DNA of 64,000 bases from contig JAYELL010000101.1 of the NCBI GenBank assembly GCA_034717495.1, positions 10,622-74,621 of the forward strand. The letters run 5' to 3'. A model generated the notes under the pieces. The model was not told the origin of the DNA, did no database searches, and was given only the letters and a program-made list of their open reading frames with translations. This DNA comes from Chloroflexota bacterium (lineage in GTDB: Bacteria; Chloroflexota; Anaerolineae; JAAEKA01). How positions within the stretch are numbered: position 1 is the first letter of the stretch; the number at the start of each line of letters is the position of its first letter. The translations under genes were made by a program, and so were the position numbers. Of this stretch, positions 7,258 to 64,000 are shown in pieces.

Positions 7258-7351
7258 GCTTTCTCGTGTGGATAGCACATTAACAACTGAAAAGTGACAG
7301 GAAGGAACCAGTGTTTTGGGCTTCTGACCTATATGGTCAAGTCAATCTTTT

Positions 7352-8851
<1,500 letters not shown>

Positions 8852-8992
8852 CTAGGGAGTTATGGCCTGCCGAAGTCGGGTTAAGCCGACTGTCGGGTGG
8901 CATACTCCTAGGTCAATTGCTCGGCCTTGAGTCGAGTAACTTCCAAAACACCCTTGCTGTCACTTTTTAGTTGTTAATGATGTCTTCCGAGA

Positions 8993-9067
<75 letters not shown>

Positions 9068-9337
9068 TGACTGAAGCGCCGGTAGAGCACTGGTAGAAGA
9101 TTAAAACAAAGATATGAGCTTCAATCGCCAAGACAAGGCATAGATCATCAGTTTAAGCACGCGACGATCGTCAGACGACCCGGCGTTGTGCCGGGTCGTT
9201 TTTGCGTCTTGGGGAGTTGGTTTCTGAAGTTTGGGCTCAAGGTGTTTGAGGGCAAACTTCAGCAACCAAATGCTGAGATGTAGTTGTTACCTTAACAACC
9301 GAATAGAATGCGTACGCTTCAATTTCTTCCATCTCAT

Positions 9338-12328
<2,991 letters not shown>

Positions 12329-12408
12329 ATGAGGTGGTAGAGATTGAAAGCTGCATTCTATTCGGTTGTTAGGGTAACAACTCATATTAACTCGATAAAT
12401 AAGCTCCA

Positions 12409-12523
12409 TTGGTGACTCTAGCGGAGGTGGTACACCCAGTCCCATCCCGAACCTGGCAGTTAAGACCTCCAGCGCCGATGGTAGTTGGGACGTAGGTCCC
12501 TGCAAGAGTAGGTCGTTGCCAAC
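12409..12523 (+). rRNA. rrf: 5S ribosomal RNA
   Basis: TGGTGACTCTAGCGGAGGTGGTACACCCAGTCCCATCCCGAACCTGG...GTAGGTCGTTGCCAA matches the 5S consensus. T-run immediately downstream. Confidence 0.9.
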
Positions 12524-12550
12524 GGAGCTTGTTTTTTTTCCAACAAACCT

Positions 12551-12608
12551 CAGCTGTTTGCCTATTGCGCCTGACTATGTTAGAATGGCTGCACTGCAAA
12601 CAGCTTTT
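12551..12608 (+). terminator. candidate rho-independent terminator after rRNA operon
   Basis: A 10-bp stem (cagctgtttgc / gcaaacagct) with a long loop, followed by TTTTTT. Confidence 0.4.
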
Positions 12609-12694
12609 TTCTTTATTGAGAATGTGTGAGGAACTATCGGCCGATCCGGCCGACGACAATTATAATCCAAGACGTCTTTCGTTCAGCTCATCAG

Positions 12695-12746
12695 ACGCCG
12701 GTTAGCTCAGTACCATGGTACTGGGTTGTCTGGCGTTTTTTGTTTC
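12695..12746 (+). terminator. candidate rho-independent terminator (second)
   Basis: Imperfect hairpin centred on the perfect 16-nt palindrome cagtaccatggtactg, closed by acgcc/ggcgt, followed by TTTTTT. Confidence 0.45.
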
Positions 12747-12816
12747 CCTGGTTTGAATCGTGGGGATCGATAATCGACCTTCACGCTCAACGTAGCAATA
12801 ATCGGAGAATATTGGC

Positions 12817-14169
12817 GTGACTTCCCAAATCGACGTCGTAATCCTGGCTGCGGGTGAAAGCACCAGGATGCGTTCAAATACGCCCAAGGTCCTGCACTCC
12901 CTGGCGGGACGTCCTATGATCGACTACTCTGTCCGGCTGGCGGAGGCTCTTTCTGATCAGCTTCCCCTGGTTGTTGTCGGGCGCGGCGCCGATGAAGTGA
13001 AGGCCTTTTTAGGCGACAGAGTTGTCTATGTCGAACAGCGCGAACGACTTGGCACAGGCCATGCGGTGCTCCAGGCTCGATCGGTCCTTGCCGAAAGGCC
13101 CAATACAACCCTCGTCTTTTACGGAGATATGCCGCTACTCACGGTGGAGACCATGGCGGGACTCCTGGCGTTGCACGAGCAGTCAGGTGGAAAACTCTCC
13201 ATGTTGACCTTCGAGAGTGATACACCCAGGGGATTTGGGCGAATCGTTCGAGGTCAGAATGGCGATGTCCAGGCAATCGTCGAGGAGGTTGACTGCACGC
13301 CCGGGCAATTTCTGATTACGGAACTCAATCCTGGTCTTTACTGCTACGATGGCGATTGGCTCTGGCAGAGCCTTGAAGCGATACCTATCGGTTCCAAAGG
13401 CGAATATTTCCTGACCGATCTGGTAGAGATCGCAGTCAATCAGGGCCACAGGGTGGCTGCCCACATCGTAGACGATGCGAGCGAAATGTTGGGCATAAAT
13501 AATCGGATTCATCTGGCTGAAGCGGAACAGGTCATACGCCAGCGGATCAATCGGTACTGGATGGAGTCGGGCGTTACCATGATCGATCCCGCTTCAACTT
13601 ACATAGACGATACCGTCATGATTGGTCCGGATACCAGGATCTTGCCCTCGACGCATCTGAAGGGTAGCACCCGGATCGGCGGGGGATGTGAAATCGGCCC
13701 CGGAAGCTTCGTTGCAGATACGCTGGTCGGCGATCGTTGTGTCGTACGCTTTTCGATGTTGGAGCAGGCAACCCTGGAAGATCAGGTCAATGTCGGGCCC
13801 TTCTCTCATCTCAGGCCCGGCGCACATCTCGCCCAAGGTGTCCACATGGGCAACTTTGGTGAGGTTAAGAACTCTTATCTTGGTCCCGGCGTGAAGATGG
13901 GGCATTTCAGTTATCTTGGCGATGCGACGGTCGGTCGCAATGTAAATATCGGAGCGGGGACTATTACCTGCAATTACGATGGCAAGAAGAAGCAGGCCAC
14001 GGTCATTGAGGATGATGTTTTCATCGGCAGTGACACCATGTTGGTGGCACCAGTCACTTTAGGAGAAGGCGCGCAAACCGGCGCAGGGTCTGTCGTTACC
14101 AAAGATGTTCCACCTGGACAACTTGTCCTGGGCGTTCCTGCGCGGCCGCGCTCAGAAAACGAAGGATAG
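12817..14169 (+). CDS. glmU: bifunctional UDP-GlcNAc pyrophosphorylase / GlcN-1-P N-acetyltransferase
   Basis: VVILAAGESTRMRSNTPKVLH...L(x)GRPMI N-terminal nucleotidyltransferase motif. C-terminal left-handed beta-helix hexapeptide repeats. GTG start with GGAGAA RBS. Confidence 0.93.
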   Translation: MTSQIDVVILAAGESTRMRSNTPKVLHSLAGRPMIDYSVRLAEALSDQLPLVVVGRGADEVKAFLGDRVVYVEQRERLGTGHAVLQARSVLAERPNTTLVFYGDMPLLTVETMAGLLALHEQSGGKLSMLTFESDTPRGFGRIVRGQNGDVQAIVEEVDCTPGQFLITELNPGLYCYDGDWLWQSLEAIPIGSKGEYFLTDLVEIAVNQGHRVAAHIVDDASEMLGINNRIHLAEAEQVIRQRINRYWMESGVTMIDPASTYIDDTVMIGPDTRILPSTHLKGSTRIGGGCEIGPGSFVADTLVGDRCVVRFSMLEQATLEDQVNVGPFSHLRPGAHLAQGVHMGNFGEVKNSYLGPGVKMGHFSYLGDATVGRNVNIGAGTITCNYDGKKKQATVIEDDVFIGSDTMLVAPVTLGEGAQTGAGSVVTKDVPPGQLVLGVPARPRSENEG

Positions 14170-48836: not shown

Positions 48837-49241
48837 TCAGGCGGCAGGGCGGATCTCTATGTTGCTGTCGTCGACCAGCACCCAGTCGCCATTTTGAATC
48901 AGGGTAATCGCCACCTGATCTACCATGGGAATATCGGCAATCAAGGCGCCCACGGCAACGATAGCTTCGCTTTCGGCGTTTATCATTGCCACCGGTGCAA
49001 CACCGTTGCGTGCCAATCGCAGGATAGTATAGGACCCCACCGTGCTTCCCTTGCCCGTGGGGAAGACCAGCACACGGTTTGCTACCGATTGTCCATGGAG
49101 CGGGTGATTTGCCTCAACCACGATTCCAGTTTCGGGGTCGATTCCGCCAAGGAAACCAATCGGTTCTGTGGAGACAAGCGCCTCCCCCTCAGCTCGACCA
49201 CCCCGGATTACACGGCCGCTGGTTCGAGTTACATTGGTCAT
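48837..49241 (-). CDS. DUF126/UPF0107 'aconitase X swivel domain' protein (possible phosphomevalonate dehydratase small subunit)
   Basis: 134 aa. ...VLVFPTGKGSTVGSYTILRLARNGVAPVAMIN...IVAVGALIADIPMV fits my recollection of the DUF126 pattern. Overlaps the selA stop by 4 nt. Confidence 0.45.
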   Translation of the reverse strand: MTNVTRTSGRVIRGGRAEGEALVSTEPIGFLGGIDPETGIVVEANHPLHGQSVANRVLVFPTGKGSTVGSYTILRLARNGVAPVAMINAESEAIVAVGALIADIPMVDQVAITLIQNGDWVLVDDSNIEIRPAA

Positions 49242-50634
49242 GGTGATGCTCCGGCCAAGTTGCTTGTACCGGCTGCAATTCTCAGCGTTTCTACTACGGT
49301 CTTATCTTGTTCGGGCAGGACAGTTCGCGGGTCCAGACAAAGGGTATCTTGCATGATGCGTGCCACGATCGGTGGATTTGCTGCCCGTAGCCGGGCGGCA
49401 AGGCGATCGGCGGGCAGGTCGGGCAGGGCCAGCAGGTGGGTGGGCAGCGTTTCCCCGGGCAACGAGCCTCCTCCAACCGTTGATTCGCCTGGCCAGACCG
49501 TGGCGGAAACACCTGCATCCTGTAACTGGGCAGCCCAGCTACCAGATCGACGGGCAATCTCACCGGCATCCATGGCAATCATTCGCCAGACGGGGATCTT
49601 CTCTGCCGCCTGGCCGCGCAGGTAGTGGGTGAGGGTAACCGAAAGCGCTGCCAGGGTCGTCTTGTCGACTCTGAGGGCGCGTGTCAGGGGATAGTGGCGA
49701 AGCTGGGCGATGGCATCTCGCTTGCCCACGATCAGGCCGGCCTGCGGGCCGCCCAACAGCTTGTCGCCGCTGAAAGTAACCAGGGTAGCGCCGGCTTCCA
49801 GGCTGTCCTGCACCCGCGGTTCGTAGGCAAGACCGAAGACTATGGTATCCAGCAGTGTTCCGCTGCCCAGATCATCTATCACGGGTATGTCTGTTTGGTG
49901 GCCCAGTTCGACGAGATCTTCCAGGCTCACCTCAGCCGTAAAGCCTATCTGCCGGAAGTTGGAGCTATGAACTCGCAACAGCACTGCCGTGTCTGGACCG
50001 ATGGCTGCCTGGAAGTCGCGCAGATGGGTACGATTGGTGGTTCCCACCTCGATCAGGCGTGCCCCGCTGGTATTCAGAACGTCAGGGATACGGAACCCAC
50101 CCCCGATCTCGACCAATTGACCCCGCGAGATAATCACTTCTTTTGCGCGGGCTAAAGCCATCAGACAGAGCAACACAGCCGAAGCGTTGTTGTTGATGAC
50201 CAGCGCGTCCTCGGCGCCCGTCAGCTGGCATAAAAGATCGACAGCGTGAACGTATCTCGAGCCTCGCTGGCCTGTCCCCAGATCATATTCCAGATTGCTG
50301 TAGCCCGCCGCGACCATCTCCATTGCTGTTCTGGCTTCGTCGCTTAAAGGCGCGCGCCCCAGGTTGGTGTGGATGATGACCCCGGTGGCGTTGATTGCCG
50401 GTCGCAGGGTCGGCTCGGTGGTGGCGTGCAGGCGGGTCAGCAGGGTCTTGCCGAGCGTTGTCAGATCGGGACAAGCCTGACTCGTTTCGATCAATGTCTG
50501 ACGGGTATCGTCCAGCAATTGCCGGGCCGTGCTTACGAGCAGGGCGTGGCCGAAGTCTTCCTCTGCTATTGCCATCTCTGGCAGCTGGAGGAGGCGGTCG
50601 ATACTGGGCAGCTTGCGCAATTCCTTATGAGACA
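49238..50634 (-). CDS. selA: L-seryl-tRNA(Sec) selenium transferase (SelA family)
   Basis: N-terminus LRKLPSIDRLL and NNNASAVLL (E. coli SelA VNNNAAAVLL). PLP lysine in FSGDKLLGGPQAG. Start reassigned to GTG at 50634 (GAGGA RBS), because the longer track ORF runs through a tRNA gene. Confidence 0.8.
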
Positions 50635-50699
50635 CGGTATCCTCAAGAAATAGAAAAGCCCCCGGCCGATGCCGACCGACGGCCATCCATTTAGACTGG

Positions 50700-50773
50700 T
50701 GGGCGAAACAGGACTCGAACCTGTGGCCTCTTCCTTGTAAGGGAAGCGCTCTAGCCAACTGAGCTATTCGCCC
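50700..50773 (-). tRNA. tRNA-Val (anticodon TAC)
   Basis: The reverse complement is GGGCGAATAGCTCAGTTGGCTAGAGCGCTTCCCTTACAAGGAAGAGGCCACAGGTTCGAGTCCTGTTTCGCCCA. Clean cloverleaf with anticodon loop CTTACAA and T-loop GGTTCGAGTCC. CCA is not encoded. Confidence 0.9.
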
Positions 50774-50916
50774 ATAGGTGCCCTGATTATACGCCGGTGG
50801 TGTGGGCCGTGTCAAATGATCGGGGATGCGGTTGAATTGCGAAACGCACTCCTCCACGGTATACTTAGAACATCAGTGCGACGAGCGAGGATGAAGAATT
50901 GTGACGGAGGTGATCG

Positions 50917-51753: not shown

Positions 51754-52920
51754 TCAGCTCGCGTTGACAACCGTCAGGGGGATTGGGGTAAACACCAGGA
51801 AAAATACCAGGAGCGTGAAAATAGCGATCAGGCGCTCCGGAGTGGAAAGTTGGGTGATTTCGTCCAGGGGGGCGATCCGTACCCGGCCAAAGACCAGGAT
51901 CAGCAGCAACCAGAGCAGCCAGCCGATCCAGAAGAACGCCAGGATTGCCATGGCTGCGATCACGATCCAGTAGACGTAGCCGGCAATGCGTTCTCCTGTC
52001 AGCGCCAGCAGGATGTGGCCACCATCCAGTTGACCGGCAGGGATCAGGTTGAGGCCGGTGACCAGTAAACCAGCCCATGCGGCAAATGCCACCTGGTGAA
52101 TAAAGACATCCTCACCGCCGGCAGGCAGCAGGCGGCCAAAGACCAGGAACTTGAGGGCTGCATAGAGGATCGAGTTACCCTCCATCATGTAGTCGACGCC
52201 AATGGGTAGTGGCTCGATGCTACTGAGGCGAAGGCCCGCGATCAACAGGGGCACTGCAAGCACCAGGCCGGCAAGAGGACCTGCGACAGCAATGGCCAGA
52301 AGGTGGCGCCGATTACGCGGTGGCGCAGTCATGTTAATCACCGCACCCAGCGTTCCAAAGGGGCCAAGGGGCATGGGGATGAAATAGGGCAGGCTGACAG
52401 GGGTGCCCAGCCGGCGGGCAACCAGATAATGGCCGAATTCGTGGGCCGCCAGGATCGCCAGCAGGGCAGCTGCAAAAGGAATGCCATCGAGAAGATTGAG
52501 GTTTGTGCCGGTCAGGCCATCGACCATTTGAGCGCCGGCAAAGAGACAGGATAACAGGGTGAAAAAAAAGAGGGCAGCGGCTACGCCAATACGCTGGTTT
52601 GCTTTTTTAAGCTGACCAGGAATTGCAAGCACAACCTCGCCCTGCTTGTCCTCGTCCTCGCGCAACAGGGGCGTAAAGCCAAGGGCATGAAAGCGATCAA
52701 ACAGATAGGAAAAGGCTGCTTCCGATGGCAATAACAGGTGACCGCGAAACCGGATGACATGCCGCTGAAGTTCGTCTTCTCTCCGGTTGACGCGCAACAA
52801 GGGGTTTGCGATGGTCTCGACGTCCTCGGTGACGTCGTCAATGGCCATCACATCGTCGACAGTCGCGCGCAGGGCGCGAACCTGGAGAACTGTGGGTTCA
52901 GTCTGTGATTCCATGCTCAT
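51754..52920 (-). CDS. site-2 protease family (M50) membrane metalloprotease
   Basis: HEFGHYLVARRLG HExxH in a TM helix, multiple TM segments and an LDGGH motif (AGQLDGGHIL). Confidence 0.8.
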   Translation of the reverse strand: MSMESQTEPTVLQVRALRATVDDVMAIDDVTEDVETIANPLLRVNRREDELQRHVIRFRGHLLLPSEAAFSYLFDRFHALGFTPLLREDEDKQGEVVLAIPGQLKKANQRIGVAAALFFFTLLSCLFAGAQMVDGLTGTNLNLLDGIPFAAALLAILAAHEFGHYLVARRLGTPVSLPYFIPMPLGPFGTLGAVINMTAPPRNRRHLLAIAVAGPLAGLVLAVPLLIAGLRLSSIEPLPIGVDYMMEGNSILYAALKFLVFGRLLPAGGEDVFIHQVAFAAWAGLLVTGLNLIPAGQLDGGHILLALTGERIAGYVYWIVIAAMAILAFFWIGWLLWLLLILVFGRVRIAPLDEITQLSTPERLIAIFTLLVFFLVFTPIPLTVVNAS

Positions 52921-53335
52921 GTAAGCAGATCAGGCAATGGCACCGGATCAACGGCTGACTTGCGCACGGCAGATATCAAGCCGTATAATGTCATCCACCG
53001 ACCGCTGTCGGAAGACCGCTGACCGCCGACCGCGGCTCGATTCTTGCTGAAAAACAACTGCCAGTTTTTTTCCTGACACATTGTACGGCAGTTTCAGGTG
53101 CAGCGCAATTTGATACACCGCCGCGCTGAATGAACCGCCGACGTGTCCCGAGCGTGTCGAGGGGCGCAGCCGAAGGGAAAACGCTGATCGATCCAAATAG
53201 AATCAGCGAGAATCTGCGCCGGAGGTGTGCGTGAATCAGCGGTGAAAAGAAAAGAGCATGACCGCAGATGACGCTGATATACGCTGATAAACGCAGATCA
53301 GGCCTCAGAAAAGATCAGAGAAGATCGGCGACCTC

Positions 53336-53365
53336 TGCGCCGAAGGTCTGCGTAATCAGCGTTCC
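53336..53365 (+). repeat. left arm of 30-bp perfect inverted repeat (tctgcgccgaaggtctgcgtaatcagcgttcc), copy B of a ~44-bp repeat element
   Basis: Exact reverse complement of 55601-55630. A diverged direct copy (copy A) lies at ~53205-53245. Confidence 0.85.
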
Positions 53366-53392
53366 TCGTGGCTTGTCCAGGTTAGGAGAGGG

Positions 53393-55642
53393 ATGCTGTT
53401 GACGATCAGACGCTCTCGTACAAATGGGTTCCGTTGGTTCATATGGATGACTATAGCCGCTTTTCTAGTCGGTATCCTGCTTGCAATTCGCGTTGAAGCG
53501 GCCCATTCGCCAGTTGATCCCACTCCTGCCGGCGGTCTGGCGTTTCCGGCGCTGGAGTGGTATACCGAATGCGCCGATTGTCCGAGAAACATGTTTCAGG
53601 TGGGGGATCGCAGCCTTCGGCTGGACTCGCAGGGCCATCCCCATATCGCGTATGTTGGCGATCACGTGTACTATGCGTATTACAATGGGACGACATGGCA
53701 TCGGGAGATAATTGCAGGTGCCCCTGGCAGCATCTATGAATGGTACCAGGCGCCGGCATCGCTGGCTTTGGACAACGCCGACAGTGCCCATATTGCCTAC
53801 TTGGACTCGACCAGCAGTGCCCTCATGTATACCAAAAAGGTGGGTGACTCATGGCAAACCCAGACTGTGAGGGTAGCGGCACCGGGGGAAAAGATCTATT
53901 ACGACACGACTCTGGAACTTGATAGCGGTGGCAAGCCCCATATTGCCTATAGCAATCATGGGATCCTGGAGTATGCGTCATGGACCGGCACGCATTGGCA
54001 GATCCAGGTCGTGGACCGAAGCGGGTGGTCGGAGATGTTCATTTCCCTGGCATTGGATCACACCGACCGGCCTCATATGAGTTACTACATGGTCAACCAC
54101 CTTGGCTCGCACATGAAATATGCCACCTGGTGGGTTGATCGTTGGTTGCACTTTACCGTTGATCGCGCCGAATACCTGGGGGAATTCAACTCCATCGCGG
54201 TGGATAGCGGGGGACTCCCTCACATCAGTTATCTCGATACCACCGGCGAACGCCTGAAACACGCCTGGTGGATCGGTGGTGGATGGCACATTGAGGTGGT
54301 GGACGAGGCAGAATGGTGGGGCGGTTTCGCCTCGGTCGCCATCGACAGCCAGGATCGACCCCATATCAGCTATGCGACCCGGCAGAATGAAGGAAGGATC
54401 GCATCCTGGGATGGCAGTGGATGGCAGATCGATACGTTCGAGCAATCGATCTGGTACTCGTCCCTGGCCCTTGATAGCAATGATGAGCCCCACATTATGT
54501 ATTTTGGCTGGCAGGATTCGCAGCTGCGTTATTCCCGGAGGATCGAAGGGCAGTGGGAACGACAATCGTTGGACAGCGTTGGCAAAGCTGGCCGGTATCC
54601 CTCCCTGGAATTGGATAATGCAAATGGCCCAAGCCTGGCTTACATCGATTTTGGGTCAGATAGCCTCAAATTCACCCAGCGCGACAACGGCCACTGGCAG
54701 GTCGAGACCGTCGCACCGATCGGCAGTGGTGGTGGGCACTCTGACCTGGCGTTGAAGCTGTCTGGTGTGCCATTCATCAGTTACTACGACAGCAGCAACG
54801 GTGACCTGATGCTGGCCCGCCGTGAAAACGACCATTGGCTATCGGAGATCGTGGATTCCGGGGGAACCGGCGGCAATGTTGGCACTTACAGTTCTCTGGC
54901 CCTTGACCTCCTCGGTGATCCCCACATCAGCTACTATGACGAAATCGGGGGTGTTTTGAGATATGCTCGTCGTGCGGCTGGTGCCTGGCAGATCGAGATC
55001 GTTGATAACAATGGCGACGCCGGTCTATACACTTCGTTGGCTTTGAACGGTGCCGGACAGCCTCATATTGCCTATTACGATCAAAGAAACGGTGACTTGA
55101 AATTAGCGGTCCAGGCCGCGGGTGTCTGGTCGATAGAGGTGGTGGATGGCCAAGGGGACGTTGGTTCCTTCAGTTCCCTGGCGCTCGACAGTTCGGGTGA
55201 GCCTCGAATCAGCTACTACGACGCTGGTGCCGGCGGTCTGAAATATGCGCGGCGCGATGGCGGCGCCTGGTATACGGAGACCGTCGATTCTGTCGGTCTC
55301 GCGGGGCAGTACACCTCGCTGGCGCTGGATGTGGAGGACCGGCCCCATATCAGCTATCACCAGGGGTCGTTTGGCGGCGCGCGATATGCCCGACTTACAG
55401 AGAGTGGCTGGCAGATTCAGGAGATTGCCAACGGTTGGCGGATGGGAGAAGGAACCTCCCTTGCTCTGGACAGTGCAGGATACCCCTGTATCGCTTTTCA
55501 TGATGGAGAGAACCAGGACTTGCTGGTGACTGCCGGGCAGCCCGTTCGTGCCTTCCTCCCGTTGGTCTCTTTTTCAGGTTCCCAACCGGGACAAGCCAGA
55601 GGAACGCTGATTACGCAGACCTTCGGCGCAGATTCACGCTGA
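53393..55642 (+). CDS. secreted/membrane-anchored tandem-repeat protein (~14 x ~47-aa repeats, propeller-like), function unknown
   Basis: N-terminal signal anchor (FRWFIWMTIAAFLVGILLAI). About 14 copies of the consensus [S]LALDsxGxPHI[SA]YyDxxxgxLkYAxrxxgxWxxExVDxxGxxGxYxS. GGAGAGGG RBS. Confidence 0.7.
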   Translation: MLLTIRRSRTNGFRWFIWMTIAAFLVGILLAIRVEAAHSPVDPTPAGGLAFPALEWYTECADCPRNMFQVGDRSLRLDSQGHPHIAYVGDHVYYAYYNGTTWHREIIAGAPGSIYEWYQAPASLALDNADSAHIAYLDSTSSALMYTKKVGDSWQTQTVRVAAPGEKIYYDTTLELDSGGKPHIAYSNHGILEYASWTGTHWQIQVVDRSGWSEMFISLALDHTDRPHMSYYMVNHLGSHMKYATWWVDRWLHFTVDRAEYLGEFNSIAVDSGGLPHISYLDTTGERLKHAWWIGGGWHIEVVDEAEWWGGFASVAIDSQDRPHISYATRQNEGRIASWDGSGWQIDTFEQSIWYSSLALDSNDEPHIMYFGWQDSQLRYSRRIEGQWERQSLDSVGKAGRYPSLELDNANGPSLAYIDFGSDSLKFTQRDNGHWQVETVAPIGSGGGHSDLALKLSGVPFISYYDSSNGDLMLARRENDHWLSEIVDSGGTGGNVGTYSSLALDLLGDPHISYYDEIGGVLRYARRAAGAWQIEIVDNNGDAGLYTSLALNGAGQPHIAYYDQRNGDLKLAVQAAGVWSIEVVDGQGDVGSFSSLALDSSGEPRISYYDAGAGGLKYARRDGGAWYTETVDSVGLAGQYTSLALDVEDRPHISYHQGSFGGARYARLTESGWQIQEIANGWRMGEGTSLALDSAGYPCIAFHDGENQDLLVTAGQPVRAFLPLVSFSGSQPGQARGTLITQTFGADSR

Positions 55643-55645
55643 TCT
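55601..55645 (+). repeat. right arm of inverted repeat / inverted copy of the 44-bp repeat element, overlapping the last 14 codons and stop of the repeat-protein gene
   Basis: The reverse complement, gatcagcgtgaatctgcgccgaaggtctgcgtaatcagcgttcc, is a chimera-like match to upstream copies A and B. Confidence 0.85.
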
Positions 55646-55726
55646 TTTTTGTGATTGATCTGCGATCATACTTCGGCTTCGCTCAGCACAAGTCTGCGTT
55701 GATCCTTCGGCTACGCTCACCGTCAC

Positions 55727-55818
55727 GCTACGTCAGCACGTCAGCACGTCAGCAGACGATGCGTGAGCTAGACGATGCGTGAGCTAGACGATGCGTGAGC
55801 TAGACGATGCGTGAGCCA
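55727..55818 (+). repeat. tandem repeats: acgtcagc x3 followed by 16-bp (gacgatgcgtgagcta) x4
   Basis: Direct reading of 55727-55818, in the convergent intergenic region between the repeat-protein gene and the helicase gene. Confidence 0.85.
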
Positions 55819-55999
55819 GGTAGCGAGCGCTCCGTGAGGTGGTGCCCCGGCGCAGTGAGCGGCTGTTGTCGACGGGAGGATCAACGTGCTGAACAGGGTT
55901 TGTGCGTTTCCGCCAGGACCTGAGTTCAGTTCGTTCGAGCGGCAATGGTGATTTTTCTCGAATGGGGGCAGAAAAAGGGAGGCTCTGGAAAATACGGAA

Positions 56000-58396
56000 T
56001 CAACGCCTGGATGGAAGAAGCATTTCCAGGATCAACTGGGCTGCTGCCTTATCCAGCGGCTCATTGTTGCTGCCGCACTTGGGACTCTGGATGCAGCTTG
56101 GGCAGCCATCATGGCAGGGACAGCGGGCGATGACCTCCCAGGTTGCCCGCCAGAGATCAGGCAACTGTTTGAAGCCTTGCTCGGCGATTCCCACGCCGCC
56201 GGGAAAGCCGTCATAGATGAACACCTGGGGCGCATCGGTATCCGGATGGCGCGGCGTGCTCAGTCCACCGATGTCCCACCGATCACACATCGCGAAAAGA
56301 GGTAAAATTCCGATGGCAGCGTGTTCGGCGGCATGGATGCCTCCCAGAAAGTCAAGCCTGCGGCGAGCACAGGCCCTGATCATTTCCGGTGACAGGTCCC
56401 ACCAGAGGGCCGCTGTCTCGAATGTGGTTGCGGGAAGTTCCAGCATTTCCTCACCGAGAACCTCCTCGGTGTAGTGGCGCAGTCGCCGGTAGCCGATGAC
56501 CTGGGATGTTGTGCGCACTTGCCCAAAGTAAGCGTTTCCCCCGGGGATGGCGCGGTGGGCCAGTGAGCGAAGTATCCGTACGTCACTCCATTCCCTTGGC
56601 TGGGTGTAGTAATCAACCTCGACAGGTCGCACAATGGCAAAACCCTGGTCCGCGTCGAAGCGGGTGACCAGGTAGCTCTCTCCCTGGTGCAGGTAGATGG
56701 CGCCGGGATGAACCCGTTGCGTTGCGCTGCTGGCTTCAATCTCTTCCAGTGTTCTGTGGTTGTTGGCCTCGTTGAGGATAGCAAAACGGGATCCGCCGAT
56801 GGATCGAAGGTTTACCTTTTCGGCCGGATAATCGTTGCCATTGTAGGCCCATCGATCCCCCTGGAAACTGAGCCTTCTCGTTTGCTCCAACTCAACCATG
56901 GCAGGCACGAATCCGGGACCAAAGAGGGCTTCATCGTCGAAATGCCCCGGCGAGGCAACATTGGTCAACGGTACCTCATGGGCCGCGCAGGGCAAGTGAC
57001 GAGCGAGGACATAGACGTTGTCCGGGTCGATCAGGGCATGTTCGTGGGGCCGGCCGAATAGCTCCTCCGGGTGACGCATGAAATACTGGTCAAGCGGGTT
57101 ATCAAGCGCGATCAGAATGGCCAGCGAGGGTTCATTCCCTCGTCCAGCCCGTCCAGCCTGCTGCCAGAGGCTGGCAATGGTGCCTGGATAACCCACAAGC
57201 ACAGCAGCATCCAGGCCACCGACATCGATACCCAGTTCCAGCGCGTTGGTTGCCGTGACCCCCAGTAGCTCGCCCGAAAAGAGGTCTCGCTCGATTTTTC
57301 GTCGTTGTTCGGGGGTGTAGCCTGCCCGGTAGGCCGCGATCCGGCTTGACAGGCTTTCATCGCCTTTAGCGGACCTGCGCCGGATTCCCCTGGTCTTGCC
57401 TTCCGGATTCTGGCCTTTCTTCAGCTCCTCCCGGGCGTAACGAAGGATCAACTCGGCAACCTTGCGCGCCCGTGTGAAGACAATGGTTCTGGTCTGGTTG
57501 CGTACCAGGGCTGAGAACAGATTGGTGGCCTCGCTGTTAGCACTGCGACGGGCTGTCCTGGCTTTGTCAATAAGGGGTGCATTCCAGAGTGCGAAACTGC
57601 GCGGACCCTGGGGGCTGCCATCGTCATCGACCACAACGCCCTCGACCCCGGTGAGCCCCAAAAAGTGTTGTGCCGGGTTGGCGATGGTTGCGCTGGTAGC
57701 GATGAATTGGGGTTCGCTGCCATATACGGCACAGACTCGACGCAACCGGCGCAGCACACAGGCTACCTGCGAACCAAAGACTCCCCGGTAGGTATGAGCC
57801 TCGTCCACCACAACGTATCGCAGATTGCGCAAGAAACTTCCCCACAGGGGATGATTGGGTAAAATCCCGAGATGGAGCATGTCGGGATTGGTGAGGATGA
57901 TCTGGCCCGACTTGCGCAGCCGTCCCCGGCGACTCTGGGGTGTGTCGCCGTCGTAGGTGCCGACCGTGACAGGCAAGGAGGTGGTCCCTCGACCTCGCTG
58001 ACCTTCGATGGCGCAGCCTAACTCTCGCAGTGCCCTTAATTGATCCTGGGCCAATGCCTTGGTGGGATAGAGATAAAGGGCTCGGGCGGTAGGCCGTTCC
58101 AGAATGGCTTCCAGCACGGGCAGGTTGTAGCCCAGGGTCTTGCCGCTGGCAGTTGCGGTGACGAGAATCAAATGCTGGCCCGACTGGGCGGCGTTTATCG
58201 CCTGTGCCTGGTGGGTAAAAAGGCGAGTGATTCCCTGGGCTTCCAACTGCCGCTTAAGGACTGGATGCAGCGGAATGGTCAGCTTTCCGTATTTTGCCCC
58301 CCGTCGCGCAACCTGTTCCAGGTGAACAATCTGGCTCTGGTAGAAGGACTGGCGACGCAGGTCCCTGAGAAAGCTGTTGACGTTCACGTTACTCAA
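56000..58396 (-). CDS. DEAD/DEAH-box helicase with C-terminal DUF1998 zinc-ribbon domain (YprA/MrfA-like)
   Basis: Motif I ATASGKTLGY, motif II VVVDEAH, helicase C motifs (QQAGRAGR), and a C-terminal 4-Cys DUF1998 (CPCHDGCPSC...C). Confidence 0.85.
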   Translation of the reverse strand: MSNVNVNSFLRDLRRQSFYQSQIVHLEQVARRGAKYGKLTIPLHPVLKRQLEAQGITRLFTHQAQAINAAQSGQHLILVTATASGKTLGYNLPVLEAILERPTARALYLYPTKALAQDQLRALRELGCAIEGQRGRGTTSLPVTVGTYDGDTPQSRRGRLRKSGQIILTNPDMLHLGILPNHPLWGSFLRNLRYVVVDEAHTYRGVFGSQVACVLRRLRRVCAVYGSEPQFIATSATIANPAQHFLGLTGVEGVVVDDDGSPQGPRSFALWNAPLIDKARTARRSANSEATNLFSALVRNQTRTIVFTRARKVAELILRYAREELKKGQNPEGKTRGIRRRSAKGDESLSSRIAAYRAGYTPEQRRKIERDLFSGELLGVTATNALELGIDVGGLDAAVLVGYPGTIASLWQQAGRAGRGNEPSLAILIALDNPLDQYFMRHPEELFGRPHEHALIDPDNVYVLARHLPCAAHEVPLTNVASPGHFDDEALFGPGFVPAMVELEQTRRLSFQGDRWAYNGNDYPAEKVNLRSIGGSRFAILNEANNHRTLEEIEASSATQRVHPGAIYLHQGESYLVTRFDADQGFAIVRPVEVDYYTQPREWSDVRILRSLAHRAIPGGNAYFGQVRTTSQVIGYRRLRHYTEEVLGEEMLELPATTFETAALWWDLSPEMIRACARRRLDFLGGIHAAEHAAIGILPLFAMCDRWDIGGLSTPRHPDTDAPQVFIYDGFPGGVGIAEQGFKQLPDLWRATWEVIARCPCHDGCPSCIQSPKCGSNNEPLDKAAAQLILEMLLPSRR

Positions 58397-60192: not shown

Positions 60193-63100
60193 TTGTACAT
60201 GTTCAAACGCGTAGTGTTAATCCTTATCGTTCTGGGCTTGCTGCTCTCTGAATCGATGACCGGTGCAAGCCGTGTCGCTGCAAATACGTTCAAGGGTGAT
60301 CCCTCTTCAGCGCTTATCTCGAATGGCACTGATCCCCTTCGATTATACCATGATTCCAACGGTATTACCCTGGAATTGAGACTGCCCGACTATCACATTA
60401 CCGAGATCCAAAGAGAAGGCGAAACCTTCCATCAGATCGTCGTGGCCAGCGAGGATTGGGTCCAGTCAAACACGCCAGGCGCTCCGCAGATTCCAGAACG
60501 CAATCTCCTTCTGGCGGTACCTGCCACGGGCAATATCGCGCTGGAGGTGCTCGATGCACAATGGCAGGAGGTGGCGGGTACCTTTCACCTGCAATCAGCC
60601 GCACAATATGGCCTTGACGCTGCAGGTGACCAGGAAGAGCAATCTCTGAAAGCTACCTGGGACCTGGACCCGGCCATCTACAACCAGTCGAGGTGGACGC
60701 CACAAAAGAGCGCCGAGATAACACGGGAAGGCCACTGGCGTGGTTTTCGTTATGCAGGTTTGGCCCTGCGGCCCTTTCAATTCAATCCCGTTGAGGGGAA
60801 GGTGCGGGCTTTGTCGACGCTCACGGTTCGGCTTTCATTCTCGATGCCTCAGCCATTCGAGATTGACGAGCCCGCGGCGGATCCCCTGTTCGATCCGATT
60901 CTCGCAGCCACATTTGCCAACTTTGATCAAGCCTTGCAATGGCGAAGCCAGACTGTATCTCCGATTTCGGTGCCGGGAATCCATCGAGGCTCCGGCGCCG
61001 GTGGGCCATGGGTGAAAATCATGGTGGACAGCGATGGTTTGTACCGCGTCACCTATGGAGACCTCGTAGATGCGGGCATATCCAACTTGACACTCGACTC
61101 GCTGAACCCGCAGACATTTCGGCTGTATGATGATAGCCTCGAGCAGGATATCAGCGTGCTGGGGCAAGGTGATGCCAGCTTTGACCCTGTTGACGAAATC
61201 CTATTCTACGGAGGGCGCAACAGGGAAAAGCTGAGTAGCGATGACAACGTCTATTGGCTCACGTGGGACGGGCAAGCTGGCCATCGAATGCTCGAGGTCT
61301 CTGGCACCCCACAATCGGCCGCGCCAGCCAATACGCTCTTGACAACCCTGCACGTCGAGGATAACACACTCTACAAACAGCAGCGGCCCTTCATCGGCTG
61401 GCTGGAGCCCATGGTGTACGACCATTGGTATTGGCAGCACGTTGAGATAAGCAAAACTATCTCGATGGATAACCTGGCTGTAGACACCAGTTCCCCGTTG
61501 AGTGCCACCCTGTCCGTATGGATGGCAGGGGACAGGAGAGACGCGGGCAATTACATAGTCGATTTCGAGGTCAATGGCCAGGATGCGGGAAGCATGGCAT
61601 GGAGTAGCACAAAAGTGCTCACCGGCACCCATGCCATTCCGGTCGGATCACTGACCGACGGCAGCAACGATCTCTGGCTGGCTCCTCGTATTCTCGGTTT
61701 CCCGGCCTGGGAATATACCGTTTGGCTGGATTGGGTCAAACTGACCTATCCCTACGATGGGCGTTATCTGCCAGGAAGCCCTTTCGGCAATCCGACTCCT
61801 GGTACCTGGCTCTATCAACTGACGGACGTTCCGGAGTCCGCCCCATGGATTCTCAACCTTGCATCGGCAGACCAGCCACAGAAGATACTGGGAGCCCAGG
61901 CTGTTCCTGCAGACAGCGGTTTCACACTGAGTTGGCAGGTGACATCGGCGGCCGAGGATCGTTTCCTGGTGGTGCCGCCGGCGGAAATCCGTTCACCTGG
62001 CGACATCCAGGTATACAGCGATGCCGGGCTATTGAATCCTGATCAACAGGTTGATTATCTGATGATTTCCCATGGTGATTTGATTGGCTCTGCCCAACCG
62101 CTGGCGGATCAACATTCGGCATCAGGGCTTTCAGTGGCCTTGATCGATGTACAGGCTATCTACGATATCTTCAGCGATGGCTCGGTGTCTGCCGAAGCGA
62201 TTCGGGATTTTCTGGGCTATGCCTACGACAACTATCAATGGCCGCCCCCGGCCGCAGCTCTGCTGATCGGCGATGGCACTGTCGATTTTCGCGGGTATCA
62301 GTTTGCCAGCTATGGGCACGCCAATCTCATTCCGCCGTACATGGGTGGTTTCGACTTCTGGGGTGGGGCAACACCTTCGGACAATGCCTATGTCTGGTTG
62401 GAGGGGGATGACGTGCTCGGTGAGATGCTGATTAGCCGTTTGCCTGTCAATAACCCTGCGCAAGCCAACGTGGTCGTCGACAAGATCCTCAACTATCCCT
62501 CGAGTTTTCCTGCCGGTCGGGCGTTGAGCACCTTCTGGGTGGCCGACAACCCTGATAGCGAAAACCCGCTTCATGGCACACAGTTCCATCTGGCGAGCGA
62601 GGAAACCCTGGCCGAGCTTGCCCCGGAGTTCCAGGTTGATCGCGCTTACTTCTGCGATCCCGCTGTGAATACCTGCACGGGTGATTCCTGGATCTACACC
62701 GACGTTCCCACCATTCGCACGGCCATCCAGGAAGGCATTAGCGAGGGACATGCATTCCTGCATTTTTCTGGGCACGGTAGTATTGGTACCTGGGCCGTTG
62801 AAGCGATATTCCGCAAAGGCTATGTCAGCCAGTTGAGCAACGGTGACGCATTGCCGTTCATGCTGATTTCCTCCTGCACCAACGGTTACTTCGCCGATGC
62901 GCGCTGGGACGGCCTGGACGAAACGATGTTACGCACCGAGGATAAAGGCACCGTGGGTGGTTTCGCGGGCACAACCTTTGATACTTTGACTCCTCAGACA
63001 GCGGTTTCGAAATATTTCCTCCGGGCTGTGATGAACGATGGTATCACTCAACCGGGACCCGCGTCGGCTGTGGCGAGGGCCAAAACATACGTCCAATTTC

Positions 63101-63489
63101 CAGGCAATGAAGGAGAATTCACGGCAGTAGGGCACAATCTATCCGGCGATCCCTTGCTCTATTTGATCAGCCCCGAGAGCTGCATCGAGGGAGATCTGGA
63201 TTGCGATGGCGATATCGATATCGTCGACGTGCAAAGGGTAGCCGCAGTTTGGAACAGCACCGCATGGCAACCTGGATTCAATCCCCGAGCCGATCTGGTG
63301 AGGGATGGCCGGATCACTGTGGAGGATATGGCTGCCATCAGTGCTCTCTGGCAGACGACTTTCAGAAGACCGCAGACGACTTTCAGAAGACCGCAGACGA
63401 CTTTCAGAAGACCGCAGACGACTTTCAGAAGACCGCAGACGACGGACGGCAGACCGCTTCCAGAGGACGGCGACACGGTGACACGGTGA
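60193..63489 (+). CDS. secreted peptidase C25 (gingipain-like) family protein with C-terminal dockerin-like segment and TTFRRPQ x4 repeats
   Basis: Signal peptide MFKRVVLILIVLGLLLS. Catalytic-region motifs HFSGHGSIGTW and ISSCTNGYF (His/Cys dyad pattern of C25). Ca-binding-like DLDCDGDIDIVD. Four 21-bp tandem repeats encode TTFRRPQ. Confidence 0.7.
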   Translation: MYMFKRVVLILIVLGLLLSESMTGASRVAANTFKGDPSSALISNGTDPLRLYHDSNGITLELRLPDYHITEIQREGETFHQIVVASEDWVQSNTPGAPQIPERNLLLAVPATGNIALEVLDAQWQEVAGTFHLQSAAQYGLDAAGDQEEQSLKATWDLDPAIYNQSRWTPQKSAEITREGHWRGFRYAGLALRPFQFNPVEGKVRALSTLTVRLSFSMPQPFEIDEPAADPLFDPILAATFANFDQALQWRSQTVSPISVPGIHRGSGAGGPWVKIMVDSDGLYRVTYGDLVDAGISNLTLDSLNPQTFRLYDDSLEQDISVLGQGDASFDPVDEILFYGGRNREKLSSDDNVYWLTWDGQAGHRMLEVSGTPQSAAPANTLLTTLHVEDNTLYKQQRPFIGWLEPMVYDHWYWQHVEISKTISMDNLAVDTSSPLSATLSVWMAGDRRDAGNYIVDFEVNGQDAGSMAWSSTKVLTGTHAIPVGSLTDGSNDLWLAPRILGFPAWEYTVWLDWVKLTYPYDGRYLPGSPFGNPTPGTWLYQLTDVPESAPWILNLASADQPQKILGAQAVPADSGFTLSWQVTSAAEDRFLVVPPAEIRSPGDIQVYSDAGLLNPDQQVDYLMISHGDLIGSAQPLADQHSASGLSVALIDVQAIYDIFSDGSVSAEAIRDFLGYAYDNYQWPPPAAALLIGDGTVDFRGYQFASYGHANLIPPYMGGFDFWGGATPSDNAYVWLEGDDVLGEMLISRLPVNNPAQANVVVDKILNYPSSFPAGRALSTFWVADNPDSENPLHGTQFHLASEETLAELAPEFQVDRAYFCDPAVNTCTGDSWIYTDVPTIRTAIQEGISEGHAFLHFSGHGSIGTWAVEAIFRKGYVSQLSNGDALPFMLISSCTNGYFADARWDGLDETMLRTEDKGTVGGFAGTTFDTLTPQTAVSKYFLRAVMNDGITQPGPASAVARAKTYVQFPGNEGEFTAVGHNLSGDPLLYLISPESCIEGDLDCDGDIDIVDVQRVAAVWNSTAWQPGFNPRADLVRDGRITVEDMAAISALWQTTFRRPQTTFRRPQTTFRRPQTTFRRPQTTDGRPLPEDGDTVTR

Positions 63490-63607
63490 CACGGCGACAC
63501 GGGGACACGGAGACACGGCGACACGGTGACACGGCGACACGGCGACACGGCGACACGGAGACACGGAGACACGGTGACACGGCGACACGGTGACACGGTG
63601 ACACGGC
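63472..63607 (+). repeat. octanucleotide tandem array (GACACGGN) x17 that starts 15 nt before the C25 peptidase stop codon (63487-63489) and spans it
   Basis: Direct count of 17 units with period 8 and a variable 8th base. Flanked by ~47-bp direct repeats (63426-63472 and 63617-63664). Confidence 0.9.
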
Positions 63608-63679
63608 GGTCAGATTCCAGAAGACCGCAGACGACGGACGGCAGACCGCTTCCAGAGGACGGCGGTCAGAGGGAATAAG

Positions 63680-64000
63680 GTGAAGGTTGCAATTCTCGGC
63701 AGGTACCCGGTAAACGGCCGTCGCGTAGCTGGTGGACCAGACGCTGTGGTGTCACAGCTGGCCAGTGGACTACAACAAATGGCGGACGTGGAAGTCCATG
63801 TCGTTACGCTTTCCAGCCAGGTGCCGGAAGATGCGTTTTTTGAGCGGGATGGCATATGGGTCCATTCGATCCGGCCACGCCGGCTACCTCGCTGGACCAT
63901 GCTTCGGCTAAATGCCCGCGCGCTGGAGCAGGCGCTGAAGGCTATTGCCCCTGATGTCGTTCATGCTCACGATGCAGGGACATATGCCGATGCGGCCCTC
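63680..64000 (+). CDS. glycosyltransferase family 4 (N-terminal domain), 3' truncated by window edge
   Basis: GTG start. MKVAILGRYPVNGRRVAGGPDAVVSQLASGL...VHAHDAGTYA is the typical GT4 N-terminal (Glyco_trans_4) pattern. Confidence 0.65.
   Translation, partial: MKVAILGRYPVNGRRVAGGPDAVVSQLASGLQQMADVEVHVVTLSSQVPEDAFFERDGIWVHSIRPRRLPRWTMLRLNARALEQALKAIAPDVVHAHDAGTYADAAL

Follow-up and report, generated by a model that had tools for sequence, protein, structure and literature searches.

An inverted repeat around a predicted beta-propeller gene in a Chloroflexota bacterium: a possible product of local duplication and gene conversion

Background

In the genome of a Chloroflexota bacterium (assembly GCA_034717495.1, contig JAYELL010000101.1), a gene encoding a tandem-repeat protein lies between the two arms of a long inverted repeat, one arm occupying its 5' leader and the other crossing its 3' end. 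The locus is part of a 64,000-nucleotide stretch of that contig (positions 10,622 to 74,621 of the forward strand), referred to here as the window, whose own numbering is used throughout. The question it raises is how a single gene came to be enclosed so closely by two copies of the same sequence. The original prediction for this locus placed the arms in a small repeat family and offered three explanations: a mobile element resembling miniature inverted-repeat transposable elements (MITEs) or repetitive extragenic palindromic (REP) sequences, an invertible or excisable segment, or paired operator sites that loop the whole gene. We favor a more ordinary explanation, to which we give a probability of roughly 0.45. 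It holds that a unit specific to this locus was duplicated locally, once in inverted orientation, and was recently homogenised by gene conversion, with a new C-terminus and a potential 5'-3' RNA duplex as by-products.

Results

The perfect inverted repeat is 34 nt long, reading TCTGCGCCGAAGGTCTGCGTAATCAGCGTTCCTC on the plus strand in the left arm and its exact reverse complement in the right arm (Table 1). A search of the 64 kb with this sequence at up to 3 mismatches returned two matches, the arms themselves, and 0 of 100 dinucleotide-preserving shuffles produced a match. The 30-bp perfect repeat described earlier is therefore real, although its perfect stretch is 34 nt rather than 30 and its coordinates were ~2 nt off. 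Toward the gene, the arms continue for another 20 nt, of which 17 match and 2 mismatch and a single base is bulged when the left flank is aligned to the reverse complement of the right, which brings the imperfect total to ~54 nt; the mismatches in this inner part are A.G and A.C, neither of which is a wobble pair. The distal extension is looser (24 matches, 8 mismatches, 10 gap columns). The left arm closes with A53387, inside the Shine-Dalgarno sequence AGGAGAGG (53384-53391), and 5 nt separate it from the ATG (53393). The right arm sets in at nt 55580; this position belongs to codon 730 of an open reading frame (ORF) of 749 codons, and homologues end at just this place. The earlier description of a gene bracketed exactly was thus apt. 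The right-hand copy had also been said to cover the TGA stop codon; this is true of the extended copy, as the 44-mer proposed at the time implies, while the TGA (55640-55642) lies 8 nt outside the perfect arm. An assembly artifact was considered and rejected, given that assembly errors can invert a segment between repeats and would not create an internal inverted repeat of 34-54 nt with diverged flanks.

The arms are part of a larger unit of ~100 nt, which is present in three copies at this locus: two direct copies upstream (A and B) and one inverted copy downstream (C). A small repeat family with two direct copies and one inverted copy had been predicted and is borne out, with a unit larger than the 44 bp then given. 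Copy C is a mosaic. Its outer part is nearer to A (25/32 aligned columns match) than to B (24/42), and its core and inner part are identical or nearly identical to B. Copies B and C agree at all 34 of 34 core positions, and their two flanks together show 41 matches and 21 differences, a contrast with Fisher p = 4e-5. Because the core is fully identical in flanks that differ this much, and because the outer part of C is nearer to A, uniform decay after a single old duplication was rejected. The contrast between core and flanks is of the kind that a recent gene-conversion tract leaves; a short duplication of very recent date on top of older similarity would give it too.

The units are composed of the heptamer ATCWGCG and its complement, with ~18 heptamers in the two flanks of the gene. 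The density of CGCWGA is 27.5 per kb in the left spacer; for coding DNA it is 1.5 per kb, and among the window's remaining spacers it ranges from 0 to 5 per kb. A cluster of four such motifs upstream (Table 1) has a matching cluster at 55605-55693. The 34-nt core is without dyad symmetry and is made of direct TCTGCG/ATCAGCG motifs. The unit folds no better than shuffled sequence (z = -0.6 to -1.1); it has no terminal inverted repeats of its own and is not a fold-back, nor is its 34-nt core a hairpin. A simple terminator scan found a weak 5-6-bp hairpin followed by a T-run at the gene-distal end of each unit. C carries this module on the plus strand, A and B on the minus, and the local fold is not significant. 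Further local duplications were observed at the locus, namely the 121-nt A/B tandem, a 10-mer present ~3 times, an 8-mer present three times, and a 16-mer present four times. The left spacer also holds a tandem repeat of 2.6 copies of CCGACCGCTGACCG at 52998-53033. Rfam gave no relevant match at E <= 5 within 52800-56100, and none at the gathering threshold over the whole window.

The bracketed ORF encodes a protein built on the repeat consensus SLALDSxGxPHISYYD. More than 1000 homologues were found, all at 46% identity or less. Neither Pfam nor NCBIfam gave a significant match for the protein itself, and homologues match BNR_4 or DUF7253 weakly. An AlphaFold2 model built on 40 homologues (mean predicted local distance difference test score, pLDDT, 89.4; predicted template modelling score 0.80) has an N-terminal transmembrane helix and an all-beta region at residues 54-717, which resembles double beta-propellers (DDB1, Elp2) and seven-bladed bacterial lectins. 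The product is, as modelled, a membrane-anchored tandem beta-propeller of the surface type. Its third-position GC content (GC3) and codon usage are the most typical in the window, which speaks against the gene having come recently from a donor of different composition, and recent horizontal transfer was rejected as an explanation.

The end of this protein is where the repeat has left its clearest mark. Among 120 homologues, 68 have a [YF]LP[LVI][VI]-type motif within the last 40 residues, and 54 of those 68 end 2-5 residues past it. In the 749-residue protein, 24 residues follow the corresponding FLPLV (nt 55553-55567). The first four of them (SFSG) make up the usual short ending, and the right arm with the flank outside it codes for the next 20 (SQPGQARGTLITQTFGADSR) and for the stop codon. 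The model gives residues 734-749 a pLDDT below 50, and they are predicted to be disordered. Since these 20 residues and the stop come from the repeat and are absent from homologues, the repeat has replaced the native stop codon and trailer. The proposal that the right-hand copy created the present C-terminus is accordingly upheld. As a side observation, the [YF]LP[LVI][VI]xx ending, found in 57% of the homologues (68/120, mostly Chloroflexota-type surface proteins), may be a C-terminal signal, as yet undescribed, for sorting or processing.

To place the gene in its context, the window and the corresponding loci of relatives were compared. The window is core chromosome, carrying dnaX, recR, an rRNA operon (7350-12524), a glmU-like gene, recO, glyQS, secA, and a gene for a GAF histidine kinase, along with hutU, genes for POR subunits, selA, and genes for SRAP, two M50 peptidases, a MrfA-type helicase, and a C25 peptidase. 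The bracketed gene sits in the slot between one M50 peptidase gene and the helicase gene. In the nearest other genomes the helicase is ~78% identical, and the neighborhood C25 / 526-aa gene / helicase ... M50 / SRAP is kept. The contents of the slot vary: it is empty in the relative L024, where the spacer is 152 nt, and holds a PMT_2 glycosyltransferase gene in L022, a 368-aa gene on a contig from the Joint Genome Institute (JGI), a C11 peptidase gene alone in L027, and a C11 peptidase gene with other genes in L029. In every case the cargo and the helicase lie on opposite strands. The ~100-nt unit and the motif cluster are absent from the slot loci of all these relatives, and the spacers there do not align with the flanks in the window. 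Because the slots of relatives are empty or hold unrelated genes, are without the unit, and have unalignable spacers, the gene and its repeat-rich flanks (~53060-55990) are lineage-specific. The comparison with relatives further shows that genes of surface and secreted proteins have landed repeatedly at the junction of helicase and M50 genes.

A Pfam scan of all window ORFs of at least 150 aa identified no recombinase or transposase, including serine and tyrosine recombinases, and no REP-associated tyrosine transposase (RAYT, a Y1 transposase) was found among the window ORFs. The earlier statement that no recombinase or transposase is nearby therefore holds for every ORF of this size across the 64 kb.

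We then searched for further copies of the repeat, using a degenerate 20-mer that covers all three local copies against one genome per species for 185,579 species. This returned 21 matches, versus ~9 expected by chance, and no relative was matched among these genomes. The source genome is not in the collection, because the window's own locus is not among the 21 matches. Within the window, no ~100-nt unit was found beyond this locus. The exact 27-mer was absent from JGI metagenomes, the degenerate 20-mer core was absent from viral contigs, and unit C (~119 nt) had no blastn match in plasmids or phages. Outside 53306 and 55651, where the sequence reads GGCCT on the left and TGATTG on the right, there is no shared direct repeat that would represent a target-site duplication. 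A mobile family of the MITE/REP-like kind thus finds no support: the unit was seen at this locus only in the 64 kb, no related copy was found in the genomes, metagenomes, viral contigs, plasmids, or phages searched, the core is not a hairpin, and no target-site duplication borders the outer ends of the repeat. Mobility of the repeat is likewise unsupported, with the negatives in the source genome covering the 64-kb window.

Four of the 21 genome matches lie on different contigs of one Planctomycetota metagenome-assembled genome (MAG; JAZDFB01), where a 20-23-mer identical to the repeat core, (C)CTCTGCGCCGAAGGTCTGCGTA, was observed. These copies sit in a small repeat family of their own, in which AATCTGCGTAG is followed by a variable hairpin and CTCTGCGCCGAAGGTCTGCGTACC; three lie in short spacers between long ORFs, and the fourth (on L001) lies within a long ORF. 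They are probably chance matches to a multi-copy motif.

Several other observations concern the neighborhood. The SRAP protein is 100% identical to NCBI entry MEA3337805.1, and this entry and that of the helicase (Table 1) are both from a Chloroflexota MAG. No 100% match to the repeat protein was obtained from the homologue search or from an exact look-up of two start variants. The NCBI numbering from MEA3337805.1 to MEA3337808.1 places entries 806 and 807 between SRAP and helicase, which would fit the M50 peptidase and the repeat protein. The C25 peptidase ORF (60193-63489) runs into a 21-nt tandem repeat of 4.4 copies of GCAGACGACTTTCAGAAGACC (window 63351-63680), giving a tail of four QTTFRRP repeats, and the protein is ~56-61 residues longer than those of relatives (1037-1042 aa). 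After this tail repeat comes an array of 18 copies of (ACGGNGAC), flanked by a ~47-nt direct repeat. Because the C25 peptidase ORF likewise reads into tandem repeats of the spacer, the rewriting of ORF ends by local repeats is characteristic of this genome. The longest ORF call for SelA (49238-50857) contains, toward its 5' end, a minus-strand tRNA-Val gene (50697-50773), and the true selA start must be further downstream because of this overlap. Between convergent HgmA and SRAP genes, L024 (16645-16725) and L022 (18285-18353) carry palindromes with 32-40-nt arms made of the tandem heptamers GATGAGC/GATGAGT, and the one in L024 overlaps both ORF ends.

Table 1 Features of the bracketed locus, its neighbors, and the repeat families used for comparison; positions are those of the window unless a contig is named
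Feature	Position	Strand	Description
M50 peptidase gene	51754..52920	-	Conserved left neighbor; boundary of variable slot
Unit A	53165..53246	+	Diverged upstream copy, direct relative to B; without the inner 25 nt
Terminator-like module of unit A	53195..53221	-	Hairpin 53221->53204, then ATTCTATTTG
Four ACGCWGAT motifs	53263..53299	-	9-10-nt spacing
Unit B	53276..53387	+	Upstream copy holding the left arm
Terminator-like module of unit B	53306..53343	-	Hairpin 53343->53325, then T-rich run
Left arm, perfect 34-nt core	53334..53367	+	5' leader, -59 to -26 from ATG
Left inner extension	53368..53387	+	G53368 bulge, 2 mismatches; last 4 nt AGGA open the Shine-Dalgarno sequence AGGAGAGG
ORF, 749 aa	53393..55642	+	Transmembrane helix 12-33, ~15 repeats of ~47 aa, FLPLV 721-725, 24-residue tail
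Repeat-encoded tail SQPGQARGTLITQTFGADSR and TGA stop	55580..55642	+	Absent from homologues
Unit C	55580..55690	-	Inverted downstream copy holding the right arm
Right inner extension	55580..55598	-	From codon 730 of the ORF
Right arm, perfect 34-nt core	55599..55632	-	Within the final codons of the ORF
Terminator-like hairpin (6 bp, weak) and T-run TCTTTTTTG	55623..55651	+	Around and directly after the stop codon
Right-flank tandem repeats	55730..55816	+	ACGTCAGC x3, then AGACGATGCGTGAGCT x4
MrfA-type DEAD/DEAH helicase gene	56000..58396	-	Conserved right neighbor; boundary of variable slot; 100% identical to NCBI MEA3337808.1
Planctomycetota (C)CTCTGCGCCGAAGGTCTGCGTA sites	L001 4954-4973; L002 1071-1090; L007 3782-3801; L016 6822-6841		
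Hairpin family sites of relatives	L024 12488-12582; L022 14085-14117 and 20230-20387; L031-L067		

Discussion

According to the explanation we favor, the inverted repeat arose by local DNA duplication specific to this locus and is not a dispersed mobile element. A lineage-specific beta-propeller gene occupies a gene-flux slot between the conserved helicase operon and the M50 peptidase gene, and an ATCWGCG-rich unit of ~100 nt would have been copied locally, twice in tandem upstream (A, B) and once, in inverted orientation, where the gene ends (C). Copy C would have displaced the original stop codon and trailer; the ORF now reads 20 codons into the repeat and ends at a repeat-supplied TGA, with the weak hairpin and U-run of the repeat next. 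Copy B supplies the leader as far as the Shine-Dalgarno sequence. Recent gene conversion between the two arms would then account for the perfect 34-nt core in diverged flanks and for the mosaic C. With both arms on one transcript, an RNA duplex of at least 54 bp between the 5' and 3' ends is predicted over the AGGA of the Shine-Dalgarno sequence as a physical by-product, and it would probably lower translation or mRNA stability, whether selected for or not. The data show the layout of the three copies, the repeat origin of the protein tail, the lineage specificity of gene and flanks, and the lack of the unit in the remaining window and in the collections searched. The sequence of events, the part of gene conversion in producing the perfect core, and the lack of a selected function are our inferences.

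The duplication explanation is suggested by the confinement of the three copies and of the dense motifs to this locus within the 64 kb, by the tandem repeats in both flanks, by the second repeat-extended ORF (C25 peptidase), by the identical core and mosaic C, by a tail of 20 residues that begins exactly at the start of the arm, by the variable slot of relatives, and by the native codon usage. The searches without a further copy, a recombinase or transposase in the 64 kb, or an Rfam match also count in its favor. The perfect core was read as an event at the DNA level because pairing between RNA strands needs no perfect identity, and because the inner mismatches are not of the wobble type. Several observations weigh on the other side. 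The copy count within the source genome covers 64 kb, and dispersed copies elsewhere are possible. The fit of the arms against the Shine-Dalgarno sequence on one side and the last family-typical codon on the other is neater than random duplication predicts. The cassette is orientation-symmetric, in that a simulated inversion closes the ORF within 10 codons and again places a hairpin and T-run after it, and the product is of the surface type, the usual target of phase variation. Lastly, among 90 genes compared, the next-best complementarities between 5' leader and 3' end belong to two genes of the same slot in relatives (p ~0.012 each), a weak hint of recurrence.

Neither local inverted duplication with gene conversion nor a 5'-3' duplex at the RNA level was among the explanations first offered, and both fit the data no worse than those do. 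One alternative is that the arms are a selected clamp between the two ends of the mRNA, which we judge unlikely. The leader and the end of the ORF would form a duplex of 54-70 bp that masks the Shine-Dalgarno sequence and/or makes a site for RNase III, coupling the fate of the mRNA to translation, and there are precedents for end pairing of this kind (PMC3868564, PMC5737220). The arm duplex has a free energy of -102 kcal/mol. When a model mRNA of 2451 nt was folded to its global energy minimum, 51/54 left-arm bases paired with the right arm, AGGA included. Every sigma-70-like promoter candidate (TATAAT at 52984, TAGAAT at 53198) is upstream of the left arm. A promoter inside the arm, with the right arm acting as an antisense promoter, was rejected, as neither the arm nor the minus strand of the right flank contains sigma-70-like hexamers. 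The leader is significantly structured (z = -2.97) and holds a local competitor helix, in which 53281-53299 can pair with 53345-53362 (17 bp), rivaling the long-range pairing of the arms. The only other long inverted repeats that bracket a gene in the window are the expected processing stems of the 23S rRNA gene at 9282-9346 / 12320-12382, with stretches of 30 nt (97% complementary) and 29 nt (90%), and they illustrate the effect of this geometry in RNA.

For comparison with other genes, RNAduplex energies were dropped on account of a very broad background, and an ungapped complementarity score was used instead. No comparable bracketing was found at the PMT_2 gene in L022, at the homologue in L026, or among 90 genes overall, apart from two weak cases at p ~0.012. 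These two (L022 12458-12481 / 14050-14073, and the L029 gene at 12034-12993) score 11 each and were picked out post hoc. The clamp is opposed by the translation of the right arm, since ribosomes would melt the duplex, as well as by a perfect identity of the core that RNA pairing does not need and by inner mismatches (A.G and A.C) that are not wobble pairs.

A whole-gene inversion switch is a second alternative, and a doubtful one. Recombination between the 34-bp arms, by an unlinked site-specific invertase or rarely by RecA, would flip 53368-55598. The flipped gene would be co-directional with the helicase operon and possibly expressed by read-through, whereas the present orientation would rely on its own weak promoter. 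The geometry is suggestive: a perfect 34-bp inverted repeat encloses a complete unit from Shine-Dalgarno sequence to ORF, around a surface-type protein, and no minus-strand terminator-like site lies between the helicase stop codon and the gene. In a simulated flip, the leader and Shine-Dalgarno sequence are retained, and the ORF ends ...TFGAEVADLL at a stop codon followed by a hairpin and T-run; the junction, natively ...AATCAGCGTTCCTC / GTGGCTTGTCCAGGTTAGGAGAGGGATG, becomes ...AATCAGCGTTCCTC / TGGCTTGTCCCGGTTGGGAACCTGAAAAAGAGACC. The conversion-like mosaic suggests that the arms have exchanged DNA, and invertible regions without a nearby recombinase gene are on record (PMC9881135). Set against these points, the 64 kb contain no recombinase, the core on inspection is without the internal dyad symmetry typical of invertase and tyrosine-recombinase core sites, and one orientation has been observed. 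Whole-gene flips are also much rarer than promoter flips. That the locus is an orientation-symmetric invertible cassette without a linked recombinase, with the same leader, a closed ORF with a 7- or 10-residue ending, and a terminator either way, seems to us correspondingly unlikely; in a variant of it, the same arms may serve as a 54-70-bp clamp that circularises the mRNA.

A mobile cassette appears quite improbable. It would be either a non-autonomous element of 2.3 kb with terminal inverted repeats at its ends and a passenger gene inside, similar to a mobile insertion cassette (MIC), or a product of a dispersed MITE/REP-like family inserted on both sides. Terminal inverted repeats of 34-54 nt do exist, and the slot is empty in one relative and variously filled in others. 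Relatives also hold a dispersed family of REP-like hairpins, also resembling the REP doublets called REPINs, of the form (A)GATTGGACCTTTCT-TCGG-AGAAAGGTCCAATCT. It is represented by 45 copies on 37 metagenome contigs, in unrelated flanks and often as inverted doublets, and its hairpins are perfect, with 15-bp stems; one doublet fills the otherwise empty helicase/M50 slot of L024. This family is absent from the window beyond chance. The model of a split REPIN, in which the gene was inserted in the spacer of a hairpin doublet of the L024 type, was considered and rejected, as the arms are not hairpins and the hairpin sequence of relatives is missing from the window. Mobility is further opposed by the lack of a target-site duplication, of a second copy in the window or any collection searched, of terminal inverted repeats or a fold-back structure in the unit itself, and of a transposase in the 64 kb, and by an ORF that reads through the right arm with native codon usage.

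Protein-binding arrays, in which the clustered ATCWGCG heptamers (~18 in the two flanks, partly phased at 9-10 bp) would act as operators on both sides of the gene and perhaps loop it, appear highly improbable: the enrichment in the left flank (27.5 per kb against ~1.5 per kb elsewhere) and the upstream cluster with its downstream match are countered by the lack of an adjacent regulator gene, by the absence of the motif upstream of any other gene in the window, by a phasing that a 10-nt tandem duplication could explain, and by the fact that operators need no perfect 34-nt inverted repeat. For the invertible segment and the operator loop alike, the positive evidence in the sequence consists of the repeat itself and the clustered heptamer with its ~10-bp phasing.

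If local duplication with gene conversion is the right explanation, the locus would be a clear case of duplicated spacer DNA rewriting the end of a gene, having supplied the stop codon, a 20-residue tail, and the trailer, and shifted an LPLV-type motif inward. It would also indicate that long inverted repeats arising from local duplication can mislead searches for invertons or MITEs. Were inversion or the mRNA clamp to be true instead, the locus would offer a first instance of control of this kind from Chloroflexota, a poorly studied group, and its geometry would be unusual in that the arms enclose an entire gene and a recombinase is not linked to them.

Comparison with known systems

Mobile insertion cassettes and MITEs are non-autonomous elements bounded by terminal inverted repeats. 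The locus resembles them in having inverted terminal repeats around a passenger gene with no transposase inside, and differs in that no target-site duplication was found, nor another copy or cognate insertion sequence in the window or the collections searched, and in that the ORF runs through the right repeat. REP and REPIN elements are short intergenic repeats that occur as inverted pairs (Bertels & Rainey 2011, PMC3116915). Inverted pairing is shared with them, and a true REPIN-like doublet occupies the orthologous empty slot of L024. Unlike these elements, the arms here are non-palindromic, lie 2.2 kb apart rather than tens of nt, are seen at this locus only within the 64 kb, and include one within an ORF. 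The hairpin that defines each REP copy is missing from the unit in the window, where B makes a 17-bp interrupted stem only together with a separate upstream motif block.

The fold-back element of the hok mRNA is one case of pairing between the 5' and 3' ends of a transcript. Other cases are icaR of S. aureus (PMC3868564) and hbs of B. subtilis (PMC5737220). The likeness, predicted here, is a leader holding part of the Shine-Dalgarno sequence that is complementary to the 3' end of the same unit, and the geometry is that of the 23S rRNA processing stems in the window. In contrast to both groups, the duplex here has a much greater length, with 34 bp perfect and up to 54-70 bp overall, and its 3' partner is coding rather than untranslated.

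The G segment of phage Mu is bounded by 34-bp inverted repeats. Recombinases are usually, although not always, adjacent to invertible regions (PMC9881135). Compared with such programmed inversions, including invertons, gene-altering inversions, and the Mu segment, the locus has no recombinase in the 64 kb, no dyad-symmetric core, and no second orientation observed, and it places a whole gene between its arms instead of a promoter or alternative gene ends. What it shares with them is a kb-sized segment enclosed by perfect inverted repeats of ~30 bp, with a surface-type protein as the target.

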